Origin: an uncultured archaeon
Lineage (GTDB): Archaea > Asgardarchaeota > Thorarchaeia > Thorarchaeales > Thorarchaeaceae
Length of the DNA stretch: 10,970 nt
Reading direction: 5' to 3'
Assembly (NCBI GenBank): GCA_964648855.1
Contig: CAZYLT010000036.1
Location: forward strand, 1 to 10,970
Each line of letters starts with the position of its first letter. The stretch's first letter is position 1. The notes under the pieces were generated by a model. That model worked only from the letters and a program-made list of their open reading frames with translations, searched no databases and had not been told where the DNA came from. Below, in pieces: positions 301-10,925 of the stretch. The translations under genes and the position numbers were made by a program.

Positions 301-1068
301 TCAGTATGCCAGCCATCCGCCATCAACCGCGAGAGTGTGCCCCGTTATGTAACGAGCATCATCACTTGCAAGAAAGGCCACTGCTCCTCGAATCCACTCG
401 CTTTTTGCAAGCATAGGTAATGCAGTGCGAGGCTCGATAACTTTCTCTCGAAGTTCATCTGATTCTATTGCCTCCTTGGACATATCTGTTGGGAAAAATC
501 CGGGTGCTATTGAATTCACTCTGATATTATGTTTACCGAGTTCCACTGCAAGAGCCTTTGTCAGAGCAATCACCCCGCCCTTGGACGCATAGTACCCCAC
601 CTCAGTGAATTCTGTGGCACCAAGTCCAAAAGTTGAACTGATGTTGATTATGCAACCACTCTCCTTGGGTATCATGACCCTTGCCACCTCTCGAGATGCG
701 AGAAACGTGGAAGTCAGATTGACATTCATTACAAGATTCCAATCCTCCAGGGTCTGTTCTACTAGAGGCTTGACAACATACATCCCCGCGTTATTGACCA
801 GAATGTCTACAGTGCCAAACTCATCTACTGTTCTATCTACCATATTTACAATGTCTGTTTCCTTTGTCACATCGGTTTTAATGGGCAGAGATCGAACATC
901 ATATTTCTTTGACAGTGCATCTGCAATTTGTTTTAGGTTCTTTTCTCGCCTTGCAGCTAGAACAACGTTTGAGCCGGCCTCAGCTAATGCATGCGCGAAT
1001 TGCTCACCTAATCCGCCAGAGCCACCGGTGATTATTGCTATCTTTCCGTCCAAATCATATTTAGCCAT
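301..1068 (-). CDS. Classical short-chain dehydrogenase/reductase (FabG / gluconate 5-dehydrogenase-like), probably NADP(H)-dependent
   Basis: 255 aa with TGGSGGLG (TGxxxGxG), NNAG, NISS, catalytic YYASK (YxxxK), IRVNSIAPG and YITGHTLAVDGG. Basic residues (ARR) after beta-2 suggest NADP(H). GGAG lies about 10 nt upstream of the ATG. Confidence 0.95.
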   Translation of the reverse strand: MAKYDLDGKIAIITGGSGGLGEQFAHALAEAGSNVVLAARREKNLKQIADALSKKYDVRSLPIKTDVTKETDIVNMVDRTVDEFGTVDILVNNAGMYVVKPLVEQTLEDWNLVMNVNLTSTFLASREVARVMIPKESGCIINISSTFGLGATEFTEVGYYASKGGVIALTKALAVELGKHNIRVNSIAPGFFPTDMSKEAIESDELREKVIEPRTALPMLAKSEWIRGAVAFLASDDARYITGHTLAVDGGWLAY

Positions 1069-1150: not shown

Positions 1151-2410
1151 ATGAAAGTTAAGAATGCTAAGACCACACTCAGAATAGTGCATCATATGAA
1201 CGAGTCGGACTGCTCTAGTGGCACTATCCAATTGGCACAAAGTGAAGGCTGGTCCACTCTATCGAATCGCATTAGGGACTCAATTGAACATAACAGCGAA
1301 AAGGCAATCGCTGAATCCATAGAAGGGATGCAGGAGCGATTCCCGACTAATTGGGGCCTTTTCCGCAGGGCCCTTTTCCATGCCTCATCTATCCCAGAGT
1401 TCATCTACAGCAATGTGGGGGTTGATGATATTCTCACTCATTTGGAAGCACACTCTTCTGCAGACGAGGGCCTGCATATCTATGATGTTGCGTTAGAAGT
1501 TATGCGAAAGAAAATCGAAGATGGGAACACCCATTTCATTGAACTAAGCAGACTGAAGAAAACAAGACTTGCTCATCTGATACCATCCATCCTGGAAACG
1601 AGGGCATCTGAACTGAAGCAACTTGCAGATGAAACTGCGACCTCTTCAGATTTGATTAAGACATACTATGGATATATTTGTGTCACGTCAGCTATCCGAG
1701 GTAAAGGGTTGTTAAGAACGCTTGAATCATTCTTGCAGCAAAATTCCATCCGTCTCCACGATGAATGCTCTCTCATAGAGCCAGATTTTGCACAAGAGGA
1801 TTTCACATCTCGAAATATGAGCTCGAATGAGGCAACTTTGCTGAAGCTCGGTCTAGATCTTACATCTACTAATTCCAATACTCGAATGATTGCTGCGAGA
1901 AAAATGGGGAAAATTGGGGATCCGCGAACAGAACCCTTTCTCAGACGGAGTACTCAGGATGCATACAGCTGGGTACGGAAGGAAAGTGTTCGCGCTCTTG
2001 CAAAACTATGCATCCCCGAGAGTGCTGATGTTTTGGATGCATGCTTGGAGGATTTCAACGAAGATATAAGAAATATAGCTATATCAGGACTCATCGAAAT
2101 AGGCTCGCCAGCAAAACAGCAGCTAATAAATCGAATTAAGGCTGACATGAATTTTGACTACGAGTCTGCTGTTTCCTCTCTAGATGTTGCACATCCCCGC
2201 TCTCTAGATAGTTTCATTGCTGCCGTCAAATATCAGAAAGAGAATGCTCTTCTTTCTGCCATTAGGGTTATGGGTCACATTGCTGATTCATCCGACTTAA
2301 TCCTTCTTGAGAAGCTGTCTAGGAATCAAAATGAGAAAATAAGCAGTGCATCAAAGAATGCCATTAGACTAATCCAAGAGCGGACCAACAATGATAGTCA
2401 TTCTTCATGA
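1151..2410 (+). CDS. HEAT-repeat (PBS-lyase-like) protein with an uncharacterised N-terminal region; true start possibly the ATG at 1196
   Basis: The C-terminal half has tandem HEAT-like units: TRMIAARKMGKIGDPRTEPFL, WVRKESVRALAKL, DIRNIAISGLIEIG, AIRVMGHIAD. A BRE/TATA-like GAAAGTTAAGA at 1153-1163 favours the in-frame ATG at 1196. Confidence 0.8.
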   Translation: MKVKNAKTTLRIVHHMNESDCSSGTIQLAQSEGWSTLSNRIRDSIEHNSEKAIAESIEGMQERFPTNWGLFRRALFHASSIPEFIYSNVGVDDILTHLEAHSSADEGLHIYDVALEVMRKKIEDGNTHFIELSRLKKTRLAHLIPSILETRASELKQLADETATSSDLIKTYYGYICVTSAIRGKGLLRTLESFLQQNSIRLHDECSLIEPDFAQEDFTSRNMSSNEATLLKLGLDLTSTNSNTRMIAARKMGKIGDPRTEPFLRRSTQDAYSWVRKESVRALAKLCIPESADVLDACLEDFNEDIRNIAISGLIEIGSPAKQQLINRIKADMNFDYESAVSSLDVAHPRSLDSFIAAVKYQKENALLSAIRVMGHIADSSDLILLEKLSRNQNEKISSASKNAIRLIQERTNNDSHSS

Positions 2411-2425
2411 TGAGGCGTATTGACC

Positions 2426-4426
2426 CTATTGTAGAAGATTGCGAGCTCTCAAGACAACATTCTCACTTGTAAAACCAAAGCTCTCAAACAAGTCTTCATA
2501 GGGGGCTGAGGCTCCGAATCTTTCGATAGAGATGATGTCTCCTTCATCTCCTACCCATTTCTGCCATCCTTGCGCGACTCCAGCCTCCACAGCAAGTCTG
2601 GCCTTCACATTATCGGGTAGAATTGATTCTTTGTATGCAGGGTCTTGCTTCTCAAAGATTTCCCAGCTCGGAAATGAAACTACTCGTACGCTATAGCCTT
2701 CATCTGCCAGAGCTTCTGCTGCAGCAGCTATTAACGGTACTTCGGAACCAGATGCCATGAGAATAATATCAGGATTCTCTCCAAAATCCTTCAATATGTA
2801 TGCTCCCTTTTGTAACCCCTTTGGCGAGTTGTATATGGACCTATCTAGAGTAGGTACATTCTGGCGAGTCAACACAATGGTAGTTGGATCATCCCGTCTC
2901 TGAATTGCTACACGCCATGCTTCTGTGACCTCGTTTGCATCACCTGGTCTAATGACTACCATATTCGGCATTGCACGAAGAGAGGCAAGGTGTTCAATGG
3001 GTTGATGCGTGGGGCCATCTTCTCCTAGGCCAATGCTGTCATGGGTGAAGACCCAAATGCTGGGGTACCCTGAGAGGGCAGATAATCGAATGGCAGGTCT
3101 CATATAATCCAAAAAGACGAAAAACGTCCCACAATAGGGTAACAAACCTCCATGGACCGCCATGCCATTAACGATACCTCCCATGGCATGTTCCCTCACC
3201 CCGAAGTAGATATTTCGTTCTGCAGGAGAATCTGCTTGAAAATCCTTACTTCCTTCTATCCATGTCTTATTTGAGCCGGTGAGATCAGCTGACCCACCAA
3301 TCATCTCTGGAATTCTTGATGTGATTACATCAAGCGTCTTTCCGGAGGCCGCTCGTGTTGCGATTCCCTTCTCATCAGGGTCAAAAACAGGTAGGTCATT
3401 ATCCCAATCACCAGGCAATCTCCCTTCTAGGCGTCTCCTGAATTCAGCTGCCTTTTCCGGGTGTTCCTTCTCATAGTTTGAAACCAGTAGGTTCCAAGTC
3501 GACTGCAGCTCCTCTCCCTGTTCCAGTGCCTCTCTAAAATGTTCTAAGACCTCATCAGGAACATGGAATTTTTCCTGGGGCCAACCAAGATTGTTCTTTG
3601 CTCCCTTGAGTTCCTCCTCGCCGGCTGGCTCACCATGGGCCTTGGCGGTGTCTTGCCGGGTAGGCAATCCGTACCCAATATGAGTTCTGCACATGATGAG
3701 GGAGGGTTTACTGTTTTCCTTCGCCTCCCGAATTGCAGCATCTATTGCTTCCACATCATTTCCATTGTCAACCTTCTGCACATGCCATCCATATGCCTCG
3801 AAACGCTTACCCACATCTTCAGTGAAAGTCAGGTCGGTACTACCGTCGATGCTTATGTCGTTGTCATCATATAGCATTATGAGTTTGCCGAGCTTGAAAT
3901 GACCCGCAAGGGATGCTGCCTCCGAAGAGATGCCCTCCATTAAGTCACCATCAGTCACTATTGCATACGTATAATGATTGACAACATCATATTCCCCCTC
4001 GTTGAATACCGCCGCCAAATGTTTTTCTGCGACCGCCATTCCTACAGCATTGGCAAATCCCTGTCCTAGGGGCCCAGTTGTCACCTCAACTCCGGGTGTA
4101 CAAAATGACTCAGGATGTCCCGGGGTATTGCTTTGCCATTGTCGAAAATCCTTGATATCATTCAATGAAACGTCATATCCAGTAAGATACAGTAGAGAAT
4201 AGAGCAGCATTGAACCATGCCCTCCTGACAAGACAAATCGGTCACGATCGGGCCATTCTGGGTCTTTTGGATTGAATCTCAGATGGCGTTTCCATAGTGT
4301 ATACGACATTGCTGCTGCGCCCATGGGCATTCCTGGATGTCCAGAATTCGCCTTTTGCACAGCATCTGCTGAAAGAAATCGAATCGTGTTAATGGCTTTC
4401 TCATGAAGTGGGTCTTTTGAATTCAT
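2426..4426 (-). CDS. tkt: Transketolase, single-chain bacterial type (EC 2.2.1.1)
   Basis: 666 aa with [42 protein letters not shown], the ThDP motif DGDLMEG...[35 protein letters not shown] and FGASAP. GGAGA RBS upstream. Confidence 0.98.
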
Positions 4427-4611: not shown

Positions 4612-5547
4612 CTACTTTCTGAACTTGACAACGAGGGCGATAACTACTACGACAACAATTCCGCCACCAATCAACAACAGCATTGTATTATCAGTGGGGA
4701 GGACGCCACCCGACTCAATTCCCAAGGTGGGATCATATTCGAGTGTTTCATTGCCAAAGTATTCGAAAGCCAAGTAGATTGCATTTCCTGCCTGCTGACC
4801 TGCAGCCTCACCATAGCTGGCCTTCACTTGAACCGTGTTCTGTGCGGCGAGAGCAGTTTCTGCGTATTCCATGTAGGCTCCATTGAACTGAAACTCGGTA
4901 CCAGTATGTCCGAAATCACCAGGGTCTCTAGACCCTTGTTCCTCTCCGTGAGCGCTCTCACTAATCGTGAATTGCAAAACGAGGATTGAGTCATCGTATG
5001 TCCAGTTCCAACTGTCAATGATCACATCGAACTTCAACTCGTTGGAATTTTGTACATCCATGTGAACCCGTATCTGTACCATTACATCAAAGGATGCCAT
5101 GTCAGGGATATTGCCTACCTCGCCTCCAGACCTGGGATTATGTTCTGTGGTGCTTGTGAAGTTGAAATGTATCGCCGTAACATTTCCATCTTCAGTTTCA
5201 GTTTCGAAACCGCTGAAGTCCCATCCTGTTGAGGGTAACGCAAATGGTGAACCTACAATCTGGTCCTCACTTGCATTGTATATTCCATCAGAATTAGTAT
5301 CGTTCGCTTCAAATAACTTGACAAAAATCAAGTGAAAGTCGGAATCAGGGCTATCTGGGTCCCACCAATGAAAATGAGGAACCTCTCCCGCGCCTGTCAC
5401 CTTCATCTCGATCTCATCAGTTGTCAGCCTGACCATTCCGGCTGTCTCTTGATACTGAATGCCATTTCCTTGTGCTGAAACCATTGGCACTGCTATAGCC
5501 AGCATGGCTGCGACAAGGGATGCAATCAAAAGTTTTGATTTTTTCAT
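4612..5547 (-). CDS. Secreted, C-terminally membrane-anchored acidic surface (glyco)protein of unknown function
   Basis: Start re-assigned to ATG 5547, which opens a Sec signal peptide (MKKSKLLIASLVAAMLAIAVPMVSA). The ectodomain is beta-rich and acidic, with a DxNxDG loop (DTNSDG) and six N-x-S/T sequons. It ends in a hydrophobic helix plus a KFRK tail. Confidence 0.85.
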   Translation of the reverse strand: MKKSKLLIASLVAAMLAIAVPMVSAQGNGIQYQETAGMVRLTTDEIEMKVTGAGEVPHFHWWDPDSPDSDFHLIFVKLFEANDTNSDGIYNASEDQIVGSPFALPSTGWDFSGFETETEDGNVTAIHFNFTSTTEHNPRSGGEVGNIPDMASFDVMVQIRVHMDVQNSNELKFDVIIDSWNWTYDDSILVLQFTISESAHGEEQGSRDPGDFGHTGTEFQFNGAYMEYAETALAAQNTVQVKASYGEAAGQQAGNAIYLAFEYFGNETLEYDPTLGIESGGVLPTDNTMLLLIGGGIVVVVVIALVVKFRK

Positions 5548-5578
5548 TGTGTAATCACTATACAATGCATATTGGTAT

Positions 5579-5588
5579 CTATATATAG
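5579..5588 (-). promoter_or_regulatory. TATA box of the surface-protein gene
   Basis: CTATATATAG lies 32-41 nt upstream of ATG 5547. This is almost the same spacing as the TATA at 10281-10290 relative to ATG 10250. Confidence 0.6.
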
Positions 5589-5974
5589 CAACTATTAGAA
5601 AAACTGGGGTTTATTAATAAAATATAGCAATGATAAAACTCCAAAATAAAAATAAAATTTTATGAAGGCTTTAAAATATTTTGAAAACCATCTAATAATC
5701 GATTTGCCTTAAATCTTAACCCATTATGGTCAAAAGGACTTGTCTAGGAAAATACTCCTTCTGACCATCGCTAGGTATGACCAACTCGATTCTTTCAGTT
5801 AGACCGTTTGCATAGATTATTCCTCGGAATAAACTAAACCGTAGTGAGGGTGCCAAAGGCATCTCACAACTCGCTTACTCTTTAAGACAGCTCGTTTTTG
5901 AATTTGTAGCAATTCTTTTATGTCACACCCGTGTAGATTTCTTACAATTCGCGTAATATGGAGGATTTGTCAAA

Positions 5975-6361
5975 ATGCAATTAGATTTTATTCCATTCCT
6001 AGGAACATTCGGAACAATAGTTTTGTTGATGATTGTAATCTCATTCATCATCACTGCTCTGTTACTCGGAGTGGCCCTAGGTCCAGTGAAGGGACGAAAT
6101 AGAGATTTCGGATCTACAGTAGTCACTGCGCTACTGATGGCCGTTTCCAACCTAGCCGCATTCGTCCCAGTCATTGGGCCTATACTGGTTTGTATTCTTC
6201 AATGGTACTTCATCAAGAGCCGCCATGATGTCGGTTGGGGTGGAGCAATTGTAGCTTGGATTGTTCTTATCATCCTGCAAGCTATCGTTCTCATTCTGAT
6301 TATACTGCTTCTAGGCGGTGGGCTCGGTCTCTTGTTCAATCTGATACCGATGTCCCCATGA
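5975..6361 (+). CDS. Small integral membrane protein (about 4 TM helices), unknown function
   Basis: 128 aa, almost entirely hydrophobic, with short polar loops (VKGRNRDFG, KSRHDVGWGG). Strong GGAGG RBS at 5960-5964. Confidence 0.85.
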   Translation: MQLDFIPFLGTFGTIVLLMIVISFIITALLLGVALGPVKGRNRDFGSTVVTALLMAVSNLAAFVPVIGPILVCILQWYFIKSRHDVGWGGAIVAWIVLIILQAIVLILIILLLGGGLGLLFNLIPMSP

Positions 6362-6404
6362 AGACATATCTTGATCATGAACTAAAGAAAATGCAAATCG
6401 GTCG

Positions 6405-7052
6405 GTGAAAAGGATCATATCTGCGACAGATGAGAAATCGTCGTTAGTGCTGAATCGAAGTGAAGTCTTACGGCACCCTCTTCTCTTTCTGAAGTCGGTT
6501 GGTTCCTTTCTCACCGCCCACCATCCTTTTTGTTCACCATTCGACTCACACACTATCAATCTGCGTGGACGTCGATGGTGCATCGGATGCACGTTCAATA
6601 ATATCTCGTTTTTTGCAACTCTTGGGTTGCTGCTAACTCTATGGTTAGTCGGATATACAAGTATCTCAAGATTCTTTTTATTCTATGGGGGACTAGCTGG
6701 ATCCACAATCTCCATTGTTTCGGGGCAGTTCAAGTTTGGTGACTCCCAGAAAGGTCGTCTAATCAGGAAGCTCATTTTGGGCAGCTCATTCGCCCTGTTT
6801 AGCTTCTCAATCTTGATTTTTGGAAACTCGATATTCTACATGTTCAAAGAGAAGTTTCTCTTTTTTGTGCTGATATACTATCCGTTGTTTTCTCTTATGA
6901 GTGCTACCAGGCTTTGGGAAGTATCGAAGACGTGTAGTCAGTGCGAGCATTCGACACAGTGGAGCAAATGCCCAGGATTTCATGAGATAGTATCGAAACT
7001 AGATCAAAATGGTTTTCTTAAGACTCGCGACAAAAATCTCAGCATTTCATAA
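6405..7052 (+). CDS. Membrane protein (about 4 TM) with Cys/His-rich putative metal-binding motifs (loosely DUF2085-like); start uncertain
   Basis: N-terminal HHPFC-x5-H-x9-CIGC precedes the TM segments. C-terminal CSQC-x8-CPGF follows them. GTG start. Confidence 0.75.
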   Translation: MKRIISATDEKSSLVLNRSEVLRHPLLFLKSVGSFLTAHHPFCSPFDSHTINLRGRRWCIGCTFNNISFFATLGLLLTLWLVGYTSISRFFLFYGGLAGSTISIVSGQFKFGDSQKGRLIRKLILGSSFALFSFSILIFGNSIFYMFKEKFLFFVLIYYPLFSLMSATRLWEVSKTCSQCEHSTQWSKCPGFHEIVSKLDQNGFLKTRDKNLSIS

Positions 7053-7128
7053 GCAAATCAGATAATCAATTACTCTCGTCGATACACTAATCTTTATTCC
7101 CTCGGTCATCGAATAATGAGGTGTTGGA

Positions 7129-7728
7129 TTGGTGCCGCCTCAGAAAGAAGTATTCAAAAATCCCGTCGTCAGAATCCCTATCGATAAGATAAGATTCCCT
7201 CGTATTTGCCCAATTTGTGGAAAAGAAGCTAATAAGCCAGCTAGAGTAACAGCCCGGCCTGGTATCTATCGATATCTTCGCCCCTCTTGGGATCCTGCAT
7301 TTTGGCCTCGAGTCAGACGAAGTGCGGGCATAAATCCTCCCGAATCAAAATCACTTATTCTATATGTATGTGAGGACCATTATCGATCAGATGAAGGAGA
7401 TAGTAATTACAAGACTCTTTGTATAGTCTGTGATGGGCTTATTGCTATGGCTCTTCTATTTGCGCTCTTTGAAATTGGGGGAACTTTCTGGTTGGGGCGG
7501 ATGCCAACTATATTATCCATAACAATGGTTCCAGTCTTCTTCATTGCCCTAGTCATTACCATTGTGGCATTTAGAGCAGGGCCATTGCGAAATGCAATCA
7601 GAATTGTAGGTTTTGATGCTGGCATTCAGAATGTATGGCTTGCATTCAAGCGATCAGACTATCGTGAAGCTTTCATTGAAGCTAACCCCATATATGCAGA
7701 AGAGGTTCGTTGGATAAGGCGCGCTTGA
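7129..7728 (+). CDS. Zn-finger (CxxC...CxxH) two-TM membrane protein, unknown function
   Basis: FPRICPICG ... VCEDH, then two hydrophobic helices and a soluble C-terminal tail. GAGGTG RBS at 7118-7123 precedes TTG 7129 / GTG 7132. Confidence 0.8.
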   Translation: MVPPQKEVFKNPVVRIPIDKIRFPRICPICGKEANKPARVTARPGIYRYLRPSWDPAFWPRVRRSAGINPPESKSLILYVCEDHYRSDEGDSNYKTLCIVCDGLIAMALLFALFEIGGTFWLGRMPTILSITMVPVFFIALVITIVAFRAGPLRNAIRIVGFDAGIQNVWLAFKRSDYREAFIEANPIYAEEVRWIRRA

Positions 7729-7898
7729 CACCTAATTCTCCCATGCAGTGTCCTGCTTCGTTCTTGTCCAATACTGAAAGCATTCATGTGTTCTGCTATG
7801 TGTATCATGTTCACATATGGACGCAAAATATGCGGAATCTCTTATGGCGAGAGCTGCTTTGCAGTTATTTTGGTTCGTATAAGGAAGGGAGCATGGTT

Positions 7899-8141
7899 AT
7901 GAGTAAGCATCCTGAAAAAATTGAGATAACTGGTCTTTTCTCTAAGATTAAGGACGAGTACTGCATCACATCTGATGATGAAGATGTATACGAACTATCT
8001 CCGTTCAAGCCGTGGGGTCCAGATTCTCCTCAAGAGATACCTCCTGAATACGAAAAGAATCTTGGAAAGAAACTCACCGCTAAAGGGCTTACTGATGGCA
8101 GAGTAATAGGGGGTGCAGAAATCAAAAGTTCAACCGATTAG
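7899..8141 (+). CDS. Small soluble hypothetical protein (about 80 aa, possibly an OB-fold-like beta-barrel)
   Basis: The ORF track starts at 7710, but AAGGAAGGGAG (7881-7891) precedes ATG 7893/7899. Only the part from there on has protein-like composition (IEITG...YCITS...YELS...LGKKLTAKG). Confidence 0.65.
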   Translation: MSKHPEKIEITGLFSKIKDEYCITSDDEDVYELSPFKPWGPDSPQEIPPEYEKNLGKKLTAKGLTDGRVIGGAEIKSSTD

Positions 8142-8255: not shown

Positions 8256-8648
8256 CTACTTAACTCCGATTTTCTTCTCATGCTTCCATAAGCCATGAAT
8301 GTTGCAATACGCTGTTGACATCAGTTTACCCGGTTTGTCCGTCTTGAACGCAAAAACTGCATGGGGCTCACAATACACAGTGCTAGTGTCTGCTCCCTTG
8401 ACTGAGGCTCCATGTGCGTCAAAGCTCATGTAACCTATCTCGTATGGAAATTTCTCCCCTTCAGGCCAGAAGAACAAGTCCATCCATTTTATGTGATGTG
8501 CAGTAGTGTTCGGATGTGAAATCTCTTTCCCTACTTGCACCTTGACATGGAAAACCTCGCCTTTCTTGACTTTATCTGGGGCATCGATTACCGGGACATG
8601 TTTTTCATTCTTCCAATCATCTGTTTGTAACCAATTCTTATCTGCCAT
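8256..8648 (-). CDS. Class II SORL-domain protein (neelaredoxin / 1Fe superoxide reductase-like)
   Basis: Non-heme iron ligand motifs EKHVP, HPNTTAHHI and CNIHGLW are present. There is no N-terminal desulforedoxin domain. AGAGGT RBS upstream. Confidence 0.93.
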   Translation of the reverse strand: MADKNWLQTDDWKNEKHVPVIDAPDKVKKGEVFHVKVQVGKEISHPNTTAHHIKWMDLFFWPEGEKFPYEIGYMSFDAHGASVKGADTSTVYCEPHAVFAFKTDKPGKLMSTAYCNIHGLWKHEKKIGVK

Positions 8649-8762: not shown

Positions 8763-10250
8763 CTAGCTAGAAATTTCATCCATGTGGGTTAGTACATCTC
8801 TACCCTTTTCTGTTAGAGCATAATAGACTCTAGATGTCTTTCGTATAGTCATTTCCTTTCGCGTCTTTACTATTAGTCCATTGTCTCGAAGCTCATTGAG
8901 ATGTTGATATACACTCGGAATGCTAATCTCAACATCATACTCTTCGTTCAATGTCTTCCATATACCGTATCCATATGATTCCCCGCTATAGAGAATTTGC
9001 ATGACGAGGATTTTTGTTTCCCCCAGTTTCATAGTGAATCTCGGGCCCTCGACTCTTCGAATTATATGCTTTAGATCCTCTCTGCTGCTGACAAATGATT
9101 TCGCAATATCTGGGTACTTCAATCCCGTACTGGTAATGACGCAAACCACAGTATCCGATGCAGCAATTTCTCCAGACTCCACTAACTGCTTGAGAGCTGC
9201 TATTGTAGTTGCTGATGCCGGTTCAGCAAACACGCCCTCTGTCTTTGCAAGTGTTCTAACGGCATTGAGAATCTCTTCATCTGAAACAGCTAGAGCCATC
9301 CCCTCTGATTCCCTTAAGGCTTCCAATGCAAGCTCTCCACAGGATGGATTCTTAACTCCGATGTCGATTGCTATGGTGCTTACAGATGGCGCAGGAGAAA
9401 TGCTAGTGTTCTTTTTGAATGCATCAACTATAGGAGAACACCCCTTAGCCTGCACACCAAGCAATCTGGTATCTGTTGCGCCAATAAGTCCCGCCTGAAC
9501 CAACTGCCGTAGGCCTCTCTGGGCCATTGATAGATGACCCCCGCTTCCCATAGGTACTACTAACCAGTCAGGCGTACTCCATCTCATCTGTTCAATGATT
9601 TCAAATGTGGTTGTTTTGATTCCCTCCAAGAAGTAAGGGTTTGATGACATTATGTTATGTCCGGCACCATGTTCCTTAGTCGCTTGTCTTATTGCCGCTT
9701 CATAGTCTGACACCGTTTTCACATCCGCAGCATATGCCAGTATCTGATAGAGCTTTCCTACATCCACATCTCCTCTGCTGGGAATATATACAGAACATCT
9801 CATAGATGCTCGGGCTGCATAGGCGACTACCGATGCTGCAAGGTTACCAGTAGACCAGCAATATACCTCACCCACGCCCGCCTGTCTAAGGCCGCTTATC
9901 TCAACTGCAGTCCCTCTGTCTAGAAATGAACCTGTTGGGTTGGTTGTTTCATCCTTCAGGTACAGATTATCAAGTCCCAAGGTTGATGCTAGCCTATCAG
10001 CTTTATGAAAGGAGGTTCCTCCTTCTCCCAGTGTCACTTTTTCATCAGTGCTTTCCAGAGGTAAGAAGCTGCGATATCTCCACATCCCCAAATCGAATGC
10101 ATCCTCCATCTCCCCTTGCGCTTTCTCCTTGGTTTCCTCTATATCATAGTAAATGAGAAGCAGTCCCTCGCATCTTGGGCAACTGCCTAACTGTGCACTT
10201 ATGGAGGTTTCATAGCCACATCTTGTACATATGGCACGAGGGACTGACAT
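8763..10250 (-). CDS. Threonine-synthase-like (PLP fold type II) protein lacking the Schiff-base lysine, fused to a C-terminal PadR-like winged HTH; probable transcriptional regulator
   Basis: N-terminal Zn ribbon (CTRC...CPRC), WRYRSFLP, TLGEGGT, LKDETTNPTGSFLDRG (K->L), STGN, PMGSGG, EPASA and TSTGLK. Residues from about 407 to 495 form a PadR-type wHTH: ILYSGESYGYGIWK...SVYQHLNELRDNGLI...RVYYALTEKG. Confidence 0.88.
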   Translation of the reverse strand: MSVPRAICTRCGYETSISAQLGSCPRCEGLLLIYYDIEETKEKAQGEMEDAFDLGMWRYRSFLPLESTDEKVTLGEGGTSFHKADRLASTLGLDNLYLKDETTNPTGSFLDRGTAVEISGLRQAGVGEVYCWSTGNLAASVVAYAARASMRCSVYIPSRGDVDVGKLYQILAYAADVKTVSDYEAAIRQATKEHGAGHNIMSSNPYFLEGIKTTTFEIIEQMRWSTPDWLVVPMGSGGHLSMAQRGLRQLVQAGLIGATDTRLLGVQAKGCSPIVDAFKKNTSISPAPSVSTIAIDIGVKNPSCGELALEALRESEGMALAVSDEEILNAVRTLAKTEGVFAEPASATTIAALKQLVESGEIAASDTVVCVITSTGLKYPDIAKSFVSSREDLKHIIRRVEGPRFTMKLGETKILVMQILYSGESYGYGIWKTLNEEYDVEISIPSVYQHLNELRDNGLIVKTRKEMTIRKTSRVYYALTEKGRDVLTHMDEISS

Positions 10251-10258
10251 TACATATC

Positions 10259-10293
10259 AAACCTATATATAGGCTCAAGATTATATATAGTTT
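10259..10293. promoter_or_regulatory. Two interlocked, oppositely oriented BRE-TATA elements (divergent promoter)
   Basis: Plus strand AAACC-TATATATA (10259-10271) faces the ECF gene. Minus strand GAAAC-TATATATA (10294-10282) faces the ThrC-like/PadR gene, with the TATA 32-39 nt upstream of its ATG. Confidence 0.6.
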
Positions 10294-10295
10294 CA

Positions 10296-10341
10296 GCTCA
10301 TTGTGTGAGTGAACCAGTGGGCTACTAGAATGCTCATTGTG
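10296..10341 (+). repeat. 10-bp direct repeat GCTCATTGTG x2 (36-bp period), candidate operator
   Basis: Exact copies at 10296-10305 and 10332-10341. The second copy runs into the GGAGA RBS of the ECF gene. Confidence 0.5.
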
Positions 10342-10355
10342 GAGACGAACGCACC

Positions 10356-10925
10356 TTGAAATACCGTAGAAACAGTTTCAATACATCCCTATTTGTAGCC
10401 CTAACAGCAGTCATGTCTGGATTAGTGACAGTTTCCACCGCCATAATCGCAATTCCATTTCCAACTAGTACTGGCTATCTGAATTTTGGCGATACACTGG
10501 TGATGATTTCAGCCATGCTTCTTGGTCCCCTTGGGGGATTCATTGCAGGCGGTCTGGGGTCTGCTCTCGCTGATGTCTCGTTGGGTTATCTCGCCTTTGC
10601 ACCTCTTACATTCGTCGTCAAAGGCGCTGAGGGTTTCCTGGTAGGGCTGATTTCCAAAAGAACCAATGAATTCGGAAAACTCGGTGCTCGTGATCTAGCC
10701 GGACTCATTATTGGCGGAATTATCATGATGCTAGGGTATTTCATTGGTGAGGTTTTTCTTTTTGGTTATGAAGCAGCCTTAGCCGAACTCCTATTCCTTA
10801 ACTGGATTCAGGCTGTTTCCGGAATAGTTGTCGCTGCCTTGGTAGGACCTAAAGTTCGGGAATATCTGGTACAATCAACGGGTAACAATGGGTCACTACA
10901 AGCTGAAGAAGACGTAGAAGGGTGA
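10356..10925 (+). CDS. ECF transporter S-component (substrate-binding subunit), HmpT/PdxU-like group
   Basis: 189 aa with 5-6 TM helices, AxxxA-type helix 1 and the signature IPFPTSTGYLNFGD...LLGP..G...GGLGSALAD...GY...AP.T...KG.EG. TTG start with GGAGA 10 nt upstream. Confidence 0.9.
   Translation: MKYRRNSFNTSLFVALTAVMSGLVTVSTAIIAIPFPTSTGYLNFGDTLVMISAMLLGPLGGFIAGGLGSALADVSLGYLAFAPLTFVVKGAEGFLVGLISKRTNEFGKLGARDLAGLIIGGIIMMLGYFIGEVFLFGYEAALAELLFLNWIQAVSGIVVAALVGPKVREYLVQSTGNNGSLQAEEDVEG

Follow-up and report, generated by a model that had tools for sequence, protein, structure and literature searches.

A candidate vitamin B6-sensing transcription regulator of Archaea built on a threonine synthase-like pseudoenzyme

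Introduction

The closest described systems to the locus considered here are the bacterial PdxR/MocR factors, in which a winged helix-turn-helix (wHTH) is joined to a sensor derived from a pyridoxal 5'-phosphate (PLP) enzyme, and which often lie divergent from their target, act at multi-box operators and have pdxST and a PdxU-type importer as their regulon (PMC5320631). MocR factors have been stated to be absent from Archaea (PMC5320631), a survey published in 2023 on how PLP is made and salvaged named PdxR and PdxR2 as the only regulators and listed alternative B6 kinases as still to be found (PMC9997740), and the way in which the archaeal pdxST route is regulated has been described as poorly characterised. 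Here we report on a 10,970-bp window of DNA, the entire contig C36 (GenBank CAZYLT010000036.1) of a 3.1-Mb, 94.6% complete genome of an uncultured archaeon of the Thorarchaeales, in which a gene for a threonine synthase-like protein without its PLP lysine and with a DNA-binding domain (henceforth referred to as the regulator) lies head-to-head with a gene for the S-component of an energy-coupling factor (ECF) vitamin transporter. On comparative sequence evidence we consider, with a probability of about 0.87, that this gene encodes a B6-sensing one-component transcription factor for vitamin B6 homeostasis.

The regulator shares with PdxR/MocR the features listed above, its connection to pdxST and to an importer being one of linkage and shared operators. 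However, their sensor is a fold-type I aminotransferase, whereas that of the regulator is of fold-type II and resembles threonine synthase (ThrC) with the PLP lysine lost; and their wHTH is N-terminal and of GntR type, whereas that of the regulator, in which Pfam gave no GntR match, is C-terminal and of PadR type. Judged from its sequence, the regulator is an analogue, not a homologue, of MocR/PdxR. We know of no earlier regulator whose sensor is a PLP pseudoenzyme of fold-type II, and we rate the family as new within the enzyme-derived vitamin regulators. Archaea are known to build vitamin regulators from a winged helix and a metabolic-enzyme domain: ThiR is of this kind, controls genes of synthesis and uptake for another vitamin and has an unrelated sensor fold, and its enzyme domain, as in RbkR, comes from the vitamin's own pathway, whereas that of the regulator derives from a mere user of the cofactor. 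RbkR is likewise an archaeal one-component regulator of this build that serves synthesis and uptake genes, but it acts for another vitamin, has an unrelated sensor fold and is still an active kinase (PMC5397151).

The architecture itself is widespread. The NCBIfam model NF004170/PRK05638 (Thermococcales, including PF1406 of Pyrococcus furiosus) describes the same architecture, covers residues 8-490 of the window protein and has also lost the lysine (to Arg), but it carries the enzyme's name, as had been suspected when it was said that homologues may be mislabelled as threonine synthase; the window protein belongs to a sister subfamily, scores 265.3 bits against the model's cut-off of 421 and goes with a different operator. 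It does exceed the cut-off of the thrC model TIGR00260 (217 against 167.1 bits), and this is how it comes by the database name threonine synthase. The initial annotation of this DNA had known of no characterised regulator of this architecture: no function was found for any, but PF1406 was already listed as a predicted transcription factor in an inventory for P. furiosus, where it bears the name 'putative threonine synthase' and a winged helix but no function (PMC6316755 and its supplement). In the full-text literature searched, which left most subscription papers outside, we found neither a description of the function of the family nor a described archaeal B6 regulator.

Results and Discussion

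The regulator combines a lysine-less threonine synthase domain with a PadR-type winged helix

Both open reading frames and the 105-bp spacer between them (10251-10355) lie where they had been placed, and the regulator indeed joins a ThrC-like domain with a leucine at the lysine position to a DNA-binding domain (Table 1). The AlphaFold model of the protein (predicted local distance difference test, pLDDT, 84) contained both domains, joined by a low-confidence linker, and in the PadR region showed helices at residues 411-421, 427-437 and 444-456 and a beta wing (pLDDT 79-92); the GY and YQHL motifs of this domain are almost invariant in homologues. Foldseek's top matches to the model were all threonine synthases (template-modelling score 0.86 over the target). 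The regulator is like the threonine synthases represented by PDB entries 2zsj, 1uim, 6cgq and 2d1f and by TIGR00260 in its fold, at 35-40% identity, and in its dimer interface, the loop for the PLP phosphate and the anchors of the ring, but differs from them in the lack of the Schiff-base lysine and of the substrate-phosphate residues, in the added wHTH and in its phylogenetic position.

The Schiff-base motif, GSFKDRG in the four solved threonine synthases, reads GSFLDRG in the regulator, and I or L occupies the lysine column in 120/120 close homologues. In a tree of 99 rows, comprising 84 wHTH fusions and 15 ThrC-like enzymes as outgroup, the fusions formed one clade separate from the enzymes (support 99); the lysine was missing from 83 of the 84 fusions and kept in all 15 outgroup rows, and its replacements across the family are I, L, M, V, T or R. 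Similarly, among representatives at 50% identity the wHTH-bearing proteins were without the lysine in all but 1 of 58 scorable cases, whereas full-length proteins without the wHTH keep it. The sole wHTH-fused member with the lysine, P0183 from Lokiarchaeota, is nested among Arg-type members and represents either a reversion or a retained state. A sequencing error at this position was considered and rejected, since the change is conserved over hundreds of homologues and the codon CTA is more than one change from a lysine codon. A separate thrC-like gene with an intact lysine exists in the same genome (L004), and because the Cys motif of the zinc ribbon also occurs in this genome's ordinary thrC-like genes (L004, L006), the ribbon is inherited and not new. 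From these alignments the threonine synthase domain is predicted to be dead as an enzyme across the family, and the regulator gene not to be a threonine synthase.

We take F60, N87, the Gly loop, E287 and T317 of Thermus thermophilus ThrC to be its PLP anchors, and T88, N154, S155 and R160 to be its substrate-phosphate residues. The anchors, transferred by alignment, are near-invariant in the regulators and are retained in the window protein as F109, N136, Gly loop 235-238, E343 and T373. In contrast, the substrate-phosphate positions are L137, M201, S202 and F207 in the window protein, and the equivalents of T88, N154 and R160 are lost across the wHTH fusions; in the R160 column Arg is not among the common residues of the regulators and is found in 9 of the 15 outgroup rows. 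Since the anchors are kept and the substrate-phosphate residues lost, the pocket would fit a phosphorylated B6 ring and not O-phosphohomoserine, which had been proposed as an alternative ligand and is now disfavoured. A homodimer model of the regulator scored 0.80 (best of three controls, 0.00), with contact agreement of at least 64% and pLDDT of at least 81 in its runs; the mark was reached by 20/30 solved homo-pairs and by 1/23 single chains, and likeness to solved ThrC dimers alone may explain the pass.

The regulator is linked to a B6-class S-component and to pdxST

The S-component, which carries the motif PTSTGYLNFGD, is 189 amino acids long if translated from a TTG at 10356 and 170 in a database call. 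HmpT/PdxU2 was its only solved relative in a single-sequence search and its only strong one in a profile search (118 bits, E 3e-33, against 25 bits for RibU), in line with the B6 class favoured initially. HmpT of Lactobacillus brevis (PDB 4HZU) was found by mass spectrometry to carry pyridoxamine, in a pocket formed by E41, H84, Q87, Y120, N140 and Q143 (PMC4860826). These residues correspond to D46, K89, E92, Y128, N149 and Q152 of the window's S-component, so that Y, N and Q are identical and E to D is conservative, but H84 has become K and Q87 has become E, as in most aligned S-component homologues; binding of B6 by the archaeal proteins is putative. None of 87 Thorarchaeales genomes had pdxS, and 79 had the S-component. 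The genome that contains the window encodes an EcfA-A'-T module elsewhere and has no PF08543 (PdxK/ThiD-family) kinase.

The adjacency of the two genes, on whose conservation the initial proposal depended, extends across Asgard archaea, Bathyarchaeia, Nitrososphaerota and Thermoprotei. All 29 other Thorarchaeia loci for which flank data were available had the head-to-head pair, in some cases separated by a GNAT gene. In a wider sample of 80 regulator loci from Asgard archaea, Bathyarchaeia, Nitrososphaerota and others the partner was the S-component in 64, pdxS-pdxT in the same divergent slot in 3 and neither in 13, and in further Thermoprotei-class loci the S-component or its usual AIR-synthase (AIRS)-fold companion was close by in 10/18. 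Only 4 of 50 regulator-bearing genomes had pdxS, which was the divergent neighbour in three of them; in the fourth its upstream DNA lies off the contig. Linkage to pdxS and pdxT, for which a test had been proposed, was found, and it arose in two independent lineages, each case pairing with an S-component-linked relative at support 100 in the 99-row tree.

Further genes accompany the S-component. A protein of the AIR-synthase/ThiL/SelD fold is encoded 3' of it in many Bathyarchaeia, Thermoprotei and Nitrososphaerota loci (for example L099:6032-7039), scores below every NCBIfam cut-off with a weak ThiL score, and has an ortholog (45%) in the window's own genome at C5:8300-9310; we put it forward tentatively as the missing archaeal B6 salvage kinase. 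An amidohydrolase-2 gene lies 3' of the S-component in L088, L179, L197, L242 and L243, the S-component of the first three being of a divergent subtype, and salvage of a modified form of B6 is a possible role for it.

Candidate operators come and go with the regulator gene

The spacer had been read as holding paired TATA boxes. The second (10281-10288) stands as the TATA box of the S-component, whereas the first, at 10262-10273, is a palindrome, CCTATATATAGG, that is perfect over its 12 bp and behaves as an operator, and two equivalent TATA boxes were accordingly rejected. The arrangement CCTATATATAGG-N7-TTATATAT is maintained from Thorarchaeia through to Nitrososphaerota and also precedes pdxS. 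We found the operator in all 42 regulator-bearing genomes of the order and in two more in which the regulator gene is cut by or beyond a contig end (reversed control, 0). In 37/42 loci only 2-11 nt separate the palindrome from the start codon, a distance too short for a TATA box, and the palindrome also precedes S-components that are remote from or without a divergent regulator (L191, L204). Its association with the regulator is seen within Thorarchaeia, where 30/30 regulator-plus loci match it with 0-1 mismatches and all 16 anchorable regulator-minus loci deviate from it by 4-8 mismatches; the latter keep the BRE-TATA (TFB recognition element and TATA box) and not the palindrome (0/16). In many Thorarchaeia deletion of the regulator has left the superoxide reductase gene adjoining the S-component, and the mixed presence of the regulator within genera g6, g10 and g12 suggests several losses. 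The TATA box at 10281-10288 is probably read both ways and, as judged from spacing, would also serve the regulator gene; in L084 and L087 the two spacer elements have both become CATATATG, which makes a second, weaker site over the TATA box possible.

A large regulon in the window's own genome was considered and rejected, because it has the palindrome as a single exact copy in 3.1 Mb and only five 1-mismatch copies, which are without BRE-TATA context. In other genomes the operator repeatedly stands before genes for GNAT acetyltransferase, radical SAM and EamA proteins (L013, L017-L020, L022, L025, L056, L186, L216), which sometimes sit between it and the S-component, and genome G087 has two regulator paralogues, one per subfamily, with different targets. 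In two Thorarchaeia a gene for a DUF89-like damage-control phosphatase has the full operator-promoter, with 1 mismatch, in front of it (L184:105-130; L185, G052:C1:32869-32894); its product may be a B6-phosphate phosphatase within the regulon, or the match may be due to chance.

Candidate operators of a sister subfamily mark B6 genes in trans

In the sister subfamily the lysine is replaced by Arg, and both the recognition helix and the palindromes are different. In Bathyarchaeia TAGTATAG-N6-CTATACTA precedes the S-component in 27/27 genomes matched, with one site in each, even where the regulator is encoded elsewhere. The Thermococcaceae ortholog (PRK05638) lies in the psmB-aCPSF1 operon, unlinked to B6 genes, and there the motif TCAAGTT-N2-AACTTGA, which has the shared core AGTT-N2-AACT, occurs 3' of the pdxS TATA box in 22/31 genomes at up to 2 mismatches and 24/31 at up to 3, and 3' of the S-component TATA box in 27/30 at up to 2 mismatches, compared with 2/456 control windows; position-specific counts were used because the genome-wide background at 1 mismatch is about one per genome. 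A prediction made beforehand held, in that the pdxS site was present in 24/24 regulator-plus and 0/7 regulator-minus Thermococcaceae genomes. For the S-component, the regulator was present in 26/27 genomes with the site and in 0/3 without it. In P. furiosus DSM 3638, whose PF1406 (Q8U123) is 36% identical to the window protein (E 2e-64), the site lies 3' of the TATA box of PF1529 (pdxS) and a weaker one precedes the S-component gene PF1876. The palindromes thus appear and vanish with the regulator gene and differ between subfamilies with different recognition helices.

Proposed mechanism and competing explanations

We propose that the regulator dimerises via the threonine synthase interface and that the dimer would hold a phosphorylated B6 vitamer (PLP, pyridoxine 5'-phosphate or pyridoxamine 5'-phosphate) non-covalently in the former active site, the bound ligand determining where the two winged helices sit along the palindrome. 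Since the site borders directly on the BRE of the importer and separates the shared TATA box from the regulator start, control of both genes is possible. When B6 is plentiful, the regulator on CCTATATATAGG would hinder transcription factor B (TFB) at the adjacent BRE and switch the importer off and, because its site is between the TATA box and the regulator start, would also damp its own promoter; when B6 is scarce, the importer would be made and would use the genome's shared EcfA-A'-T module. Provided that the protein is a B6 regulator, it probably acts as a repressor rather than an activator, since the importer promoter is unchanged after loss of the regulator in organisms without pdxS and since the sites of the sister subfamily are downstream of the TATA box. 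We also think it likely that the family as a whole is a vitamin B6 regulator of Archaea (Asgard, TACK and Thermococcales), a fold-type II PLP pseudoenzyme with non-covalent sensing of phosphorylated B6 and subfamily-specific operators.

Several observations weigh against this interpretation. The 13 loci (of 80) with neither partner have none within ~4 kb, although some are short contigs, and in one Bathyarchaeia clade the motif precedes GNAT, EamA or radical-SAM genes (L056, L062, L112), which indicates that the regulon can drift. The strongest evidence for a regulon in trans comes from the sister subfamily, 36% identical and with a different operator, and not from that of the window, and the seven Thermococcaceae without the regulator may be one clade, so that 7/7 does not represent seven independent events. 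Two of the six HmpT pocket residues are altered in the S-component (K for H and E for Q, non-conservative or partial), and HmpT was first assigned to hydroxymethylpyrimidine (HMP), its B6 ligand coming from one study by mass spectrometry and molecular dynamics (PMC4860826). Finally, the position of the site, flush upstream of the BRE, resembles the predicted activating position of RbkR (PMC5397151). This last point bears on a variant of the same B6 regulator, which would be an activator or dual regulator whose apo form, upstream of the BRE, recruits TFB and represses its own gene until PLP releases it. RbkR sites 1-12 nt upstream of promoter elements have been read as activating (PMC5397151), and titles cited in PMC9997740 describe PdxR as an activator of pdxST. 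On the other side, regulator-less Thorarchaeia, none of which has pdxS, keep both the BRE-TATA and the importer, so the promoter seems functional without the regulator, and the sister-subfamily sites are in the repressor position; for a protein that senses B6, activation is possible but somewhat doubtful.

Other explanations deny the link to B6. Regulation of HMP salvage, with the S-component carrying HMP and the AIRS-fold protein acting as a ThiL-like kinase, would agree with the original assignment of HmpT and with the weak ThiL score of the AIRS-fold neighbour, and the P. furiosus S-component gene PF1876 is divergent from the ThiL-like kinase gene PF1877 (L368), a mild point for a thiamine link; yet it does not account for the three lineages in which pdxST has the same operator, mass spectrometry found pyridoxamine on HmpT and the sensor is a PLP pocket, and we regard it as very improbable. 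Descent from ThrC, and an intact thrC as upstream neighbour in three Bathyarchaeia loci (L105, L117, L119), might suggest that the dead domain senses O-phosphohomoserine or threonine for the regulation of amino-acid genes, the transporter being incidental. However, the S-component is still near in these three loci, with the operator before it in L105 and L119, linkage to a thr operon was not seen in other loci, it is pdxS and the S-component that the operators follow, and the protein has lost the substrate-phosphate residues, which leaves this reading very improbable as well. It is just as hard to credit that the protein is still an enzyme, a threonine synthase or a catalyst of another PLP reaction, with the palindrome as its gene's own TATA box: the TIGR00260 cut-off is passed and many residues adjoining the active site are invariant, but the Schiff-base lysine is missing in the family, the genome has an intact thrC-like gene, and the palindrome is too near the start codon for a TATA box and occurs before S-components that lack a divergent regulator.

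If a B6-sensing regulator is the correct reading, it would to our knowledge be without precedent in taking a PLP pseudoenzyme of fold-type II as its sensor, and Archaea, which are without MocR/PdxR, would gain a named candidate B6 regulator together with its operators and regulon. It would lend support to the view that archaeal HmpT-class S-components have B6 as substrate and that Thorarchaeia are B6 auxotrophs, and would correct the widespread annotation 'threonine synthase', including that of a curated NCBI model, which can inflate calls of threonine prototrophy in archaeal genomes. The proposal is testable in a cultured organism, P. furiosus, through PF1406 and the site immediately 3' of the pdxS (PF1529) TATA box.

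Other genes of the window

Table 1. Features of the 10,970-bp window.
Feature	Position	Strand	Remarks
Short-chain dehydrogenase	301-1068	-	ordinary
HEAT-repeat protein	1151-2410	+	ordinary
Full-length transketolase	2426-4426	-	ordinary
Open reading frame without Pfam match	4612-5565	-	
Open reading frames without Pfam match	5975-6361, 6405-7052, 7129-7728, 7710-8141	+	
Desulfoferrodoxin/superoxide reductase	8256-8648	-	neighbour conserved in Thorarchaeia, regulator present or not
Regulator gene, 495 amino acids	8763-10250	-	zinc ribbon, lysine-less threonine synthase (fold-type II PLP) domain and PadR-type winged helix
PadR-type winged helix-turn-helix, residues 416-488	8787-9005	-	Pfam PF03551, 50.2 bits (cut-off 27)
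PALP domain, residues 72-373, proposed B6-vitamer sensor	9132-10037	-	Pfam PF00291, 218.7 bits
Leu110 (CTA) replacing the Schiff-base lysine (K61 of T. thermophilus ThrC)	9921-9923	-	from alignment
Zinc ribbon CxxC...CxxC, residues 8-27	10170-10229	-	C8, C11, C24 and C27 invariant
Palindrome CCTATATATAGG, candidate operator	10262-10273	.	flush with the S-component BRE; 11 nt from the regulator ATG
BRE CTCAAGA	10274-10280	+	S-component promoter
TATA box TTATATAT	10281-10288	+	S-component; retained where the regulator is lost
ECF S-component, HmpT/PdxU2 (vitamin B6) class, 189 amino acids	10356-10925	+	PF07155, 115 bits; start uncertain

The five reading frames without a Pfam match (4612-8141) appear to encode membrane proteins with Cys motifs and a protein that is probably secreted and anchored by its C terminus, and relatives of the three membrane proteins seem to recur in synteny in Thorarchaeia. 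Rfam gave no riboswitch or other RNA family in the window, and a sigma-70 promoter scan of the window, a model unsuited to Archaea, returned chance-level counts. The superoxide reductase was considered as a member of the regulon and rejected, since it is still beside the S-component where the regulator has been deleted; in Thorarchaeia a rubrerythrin gene lies on the far side of the cluster. Directly 3' of the S-component, most Thorarchaeia, with or without the regulator, encode a conserved protein of 430 amino acids (for example L044:1296-2591), which had no match in Pfam or NCBIfam and only unnamed clusters in an Atlas feature search. In the window's own genome this gene is found at the end of contig C37 (C37:9369-10649), which suggests that C36 joins C37.

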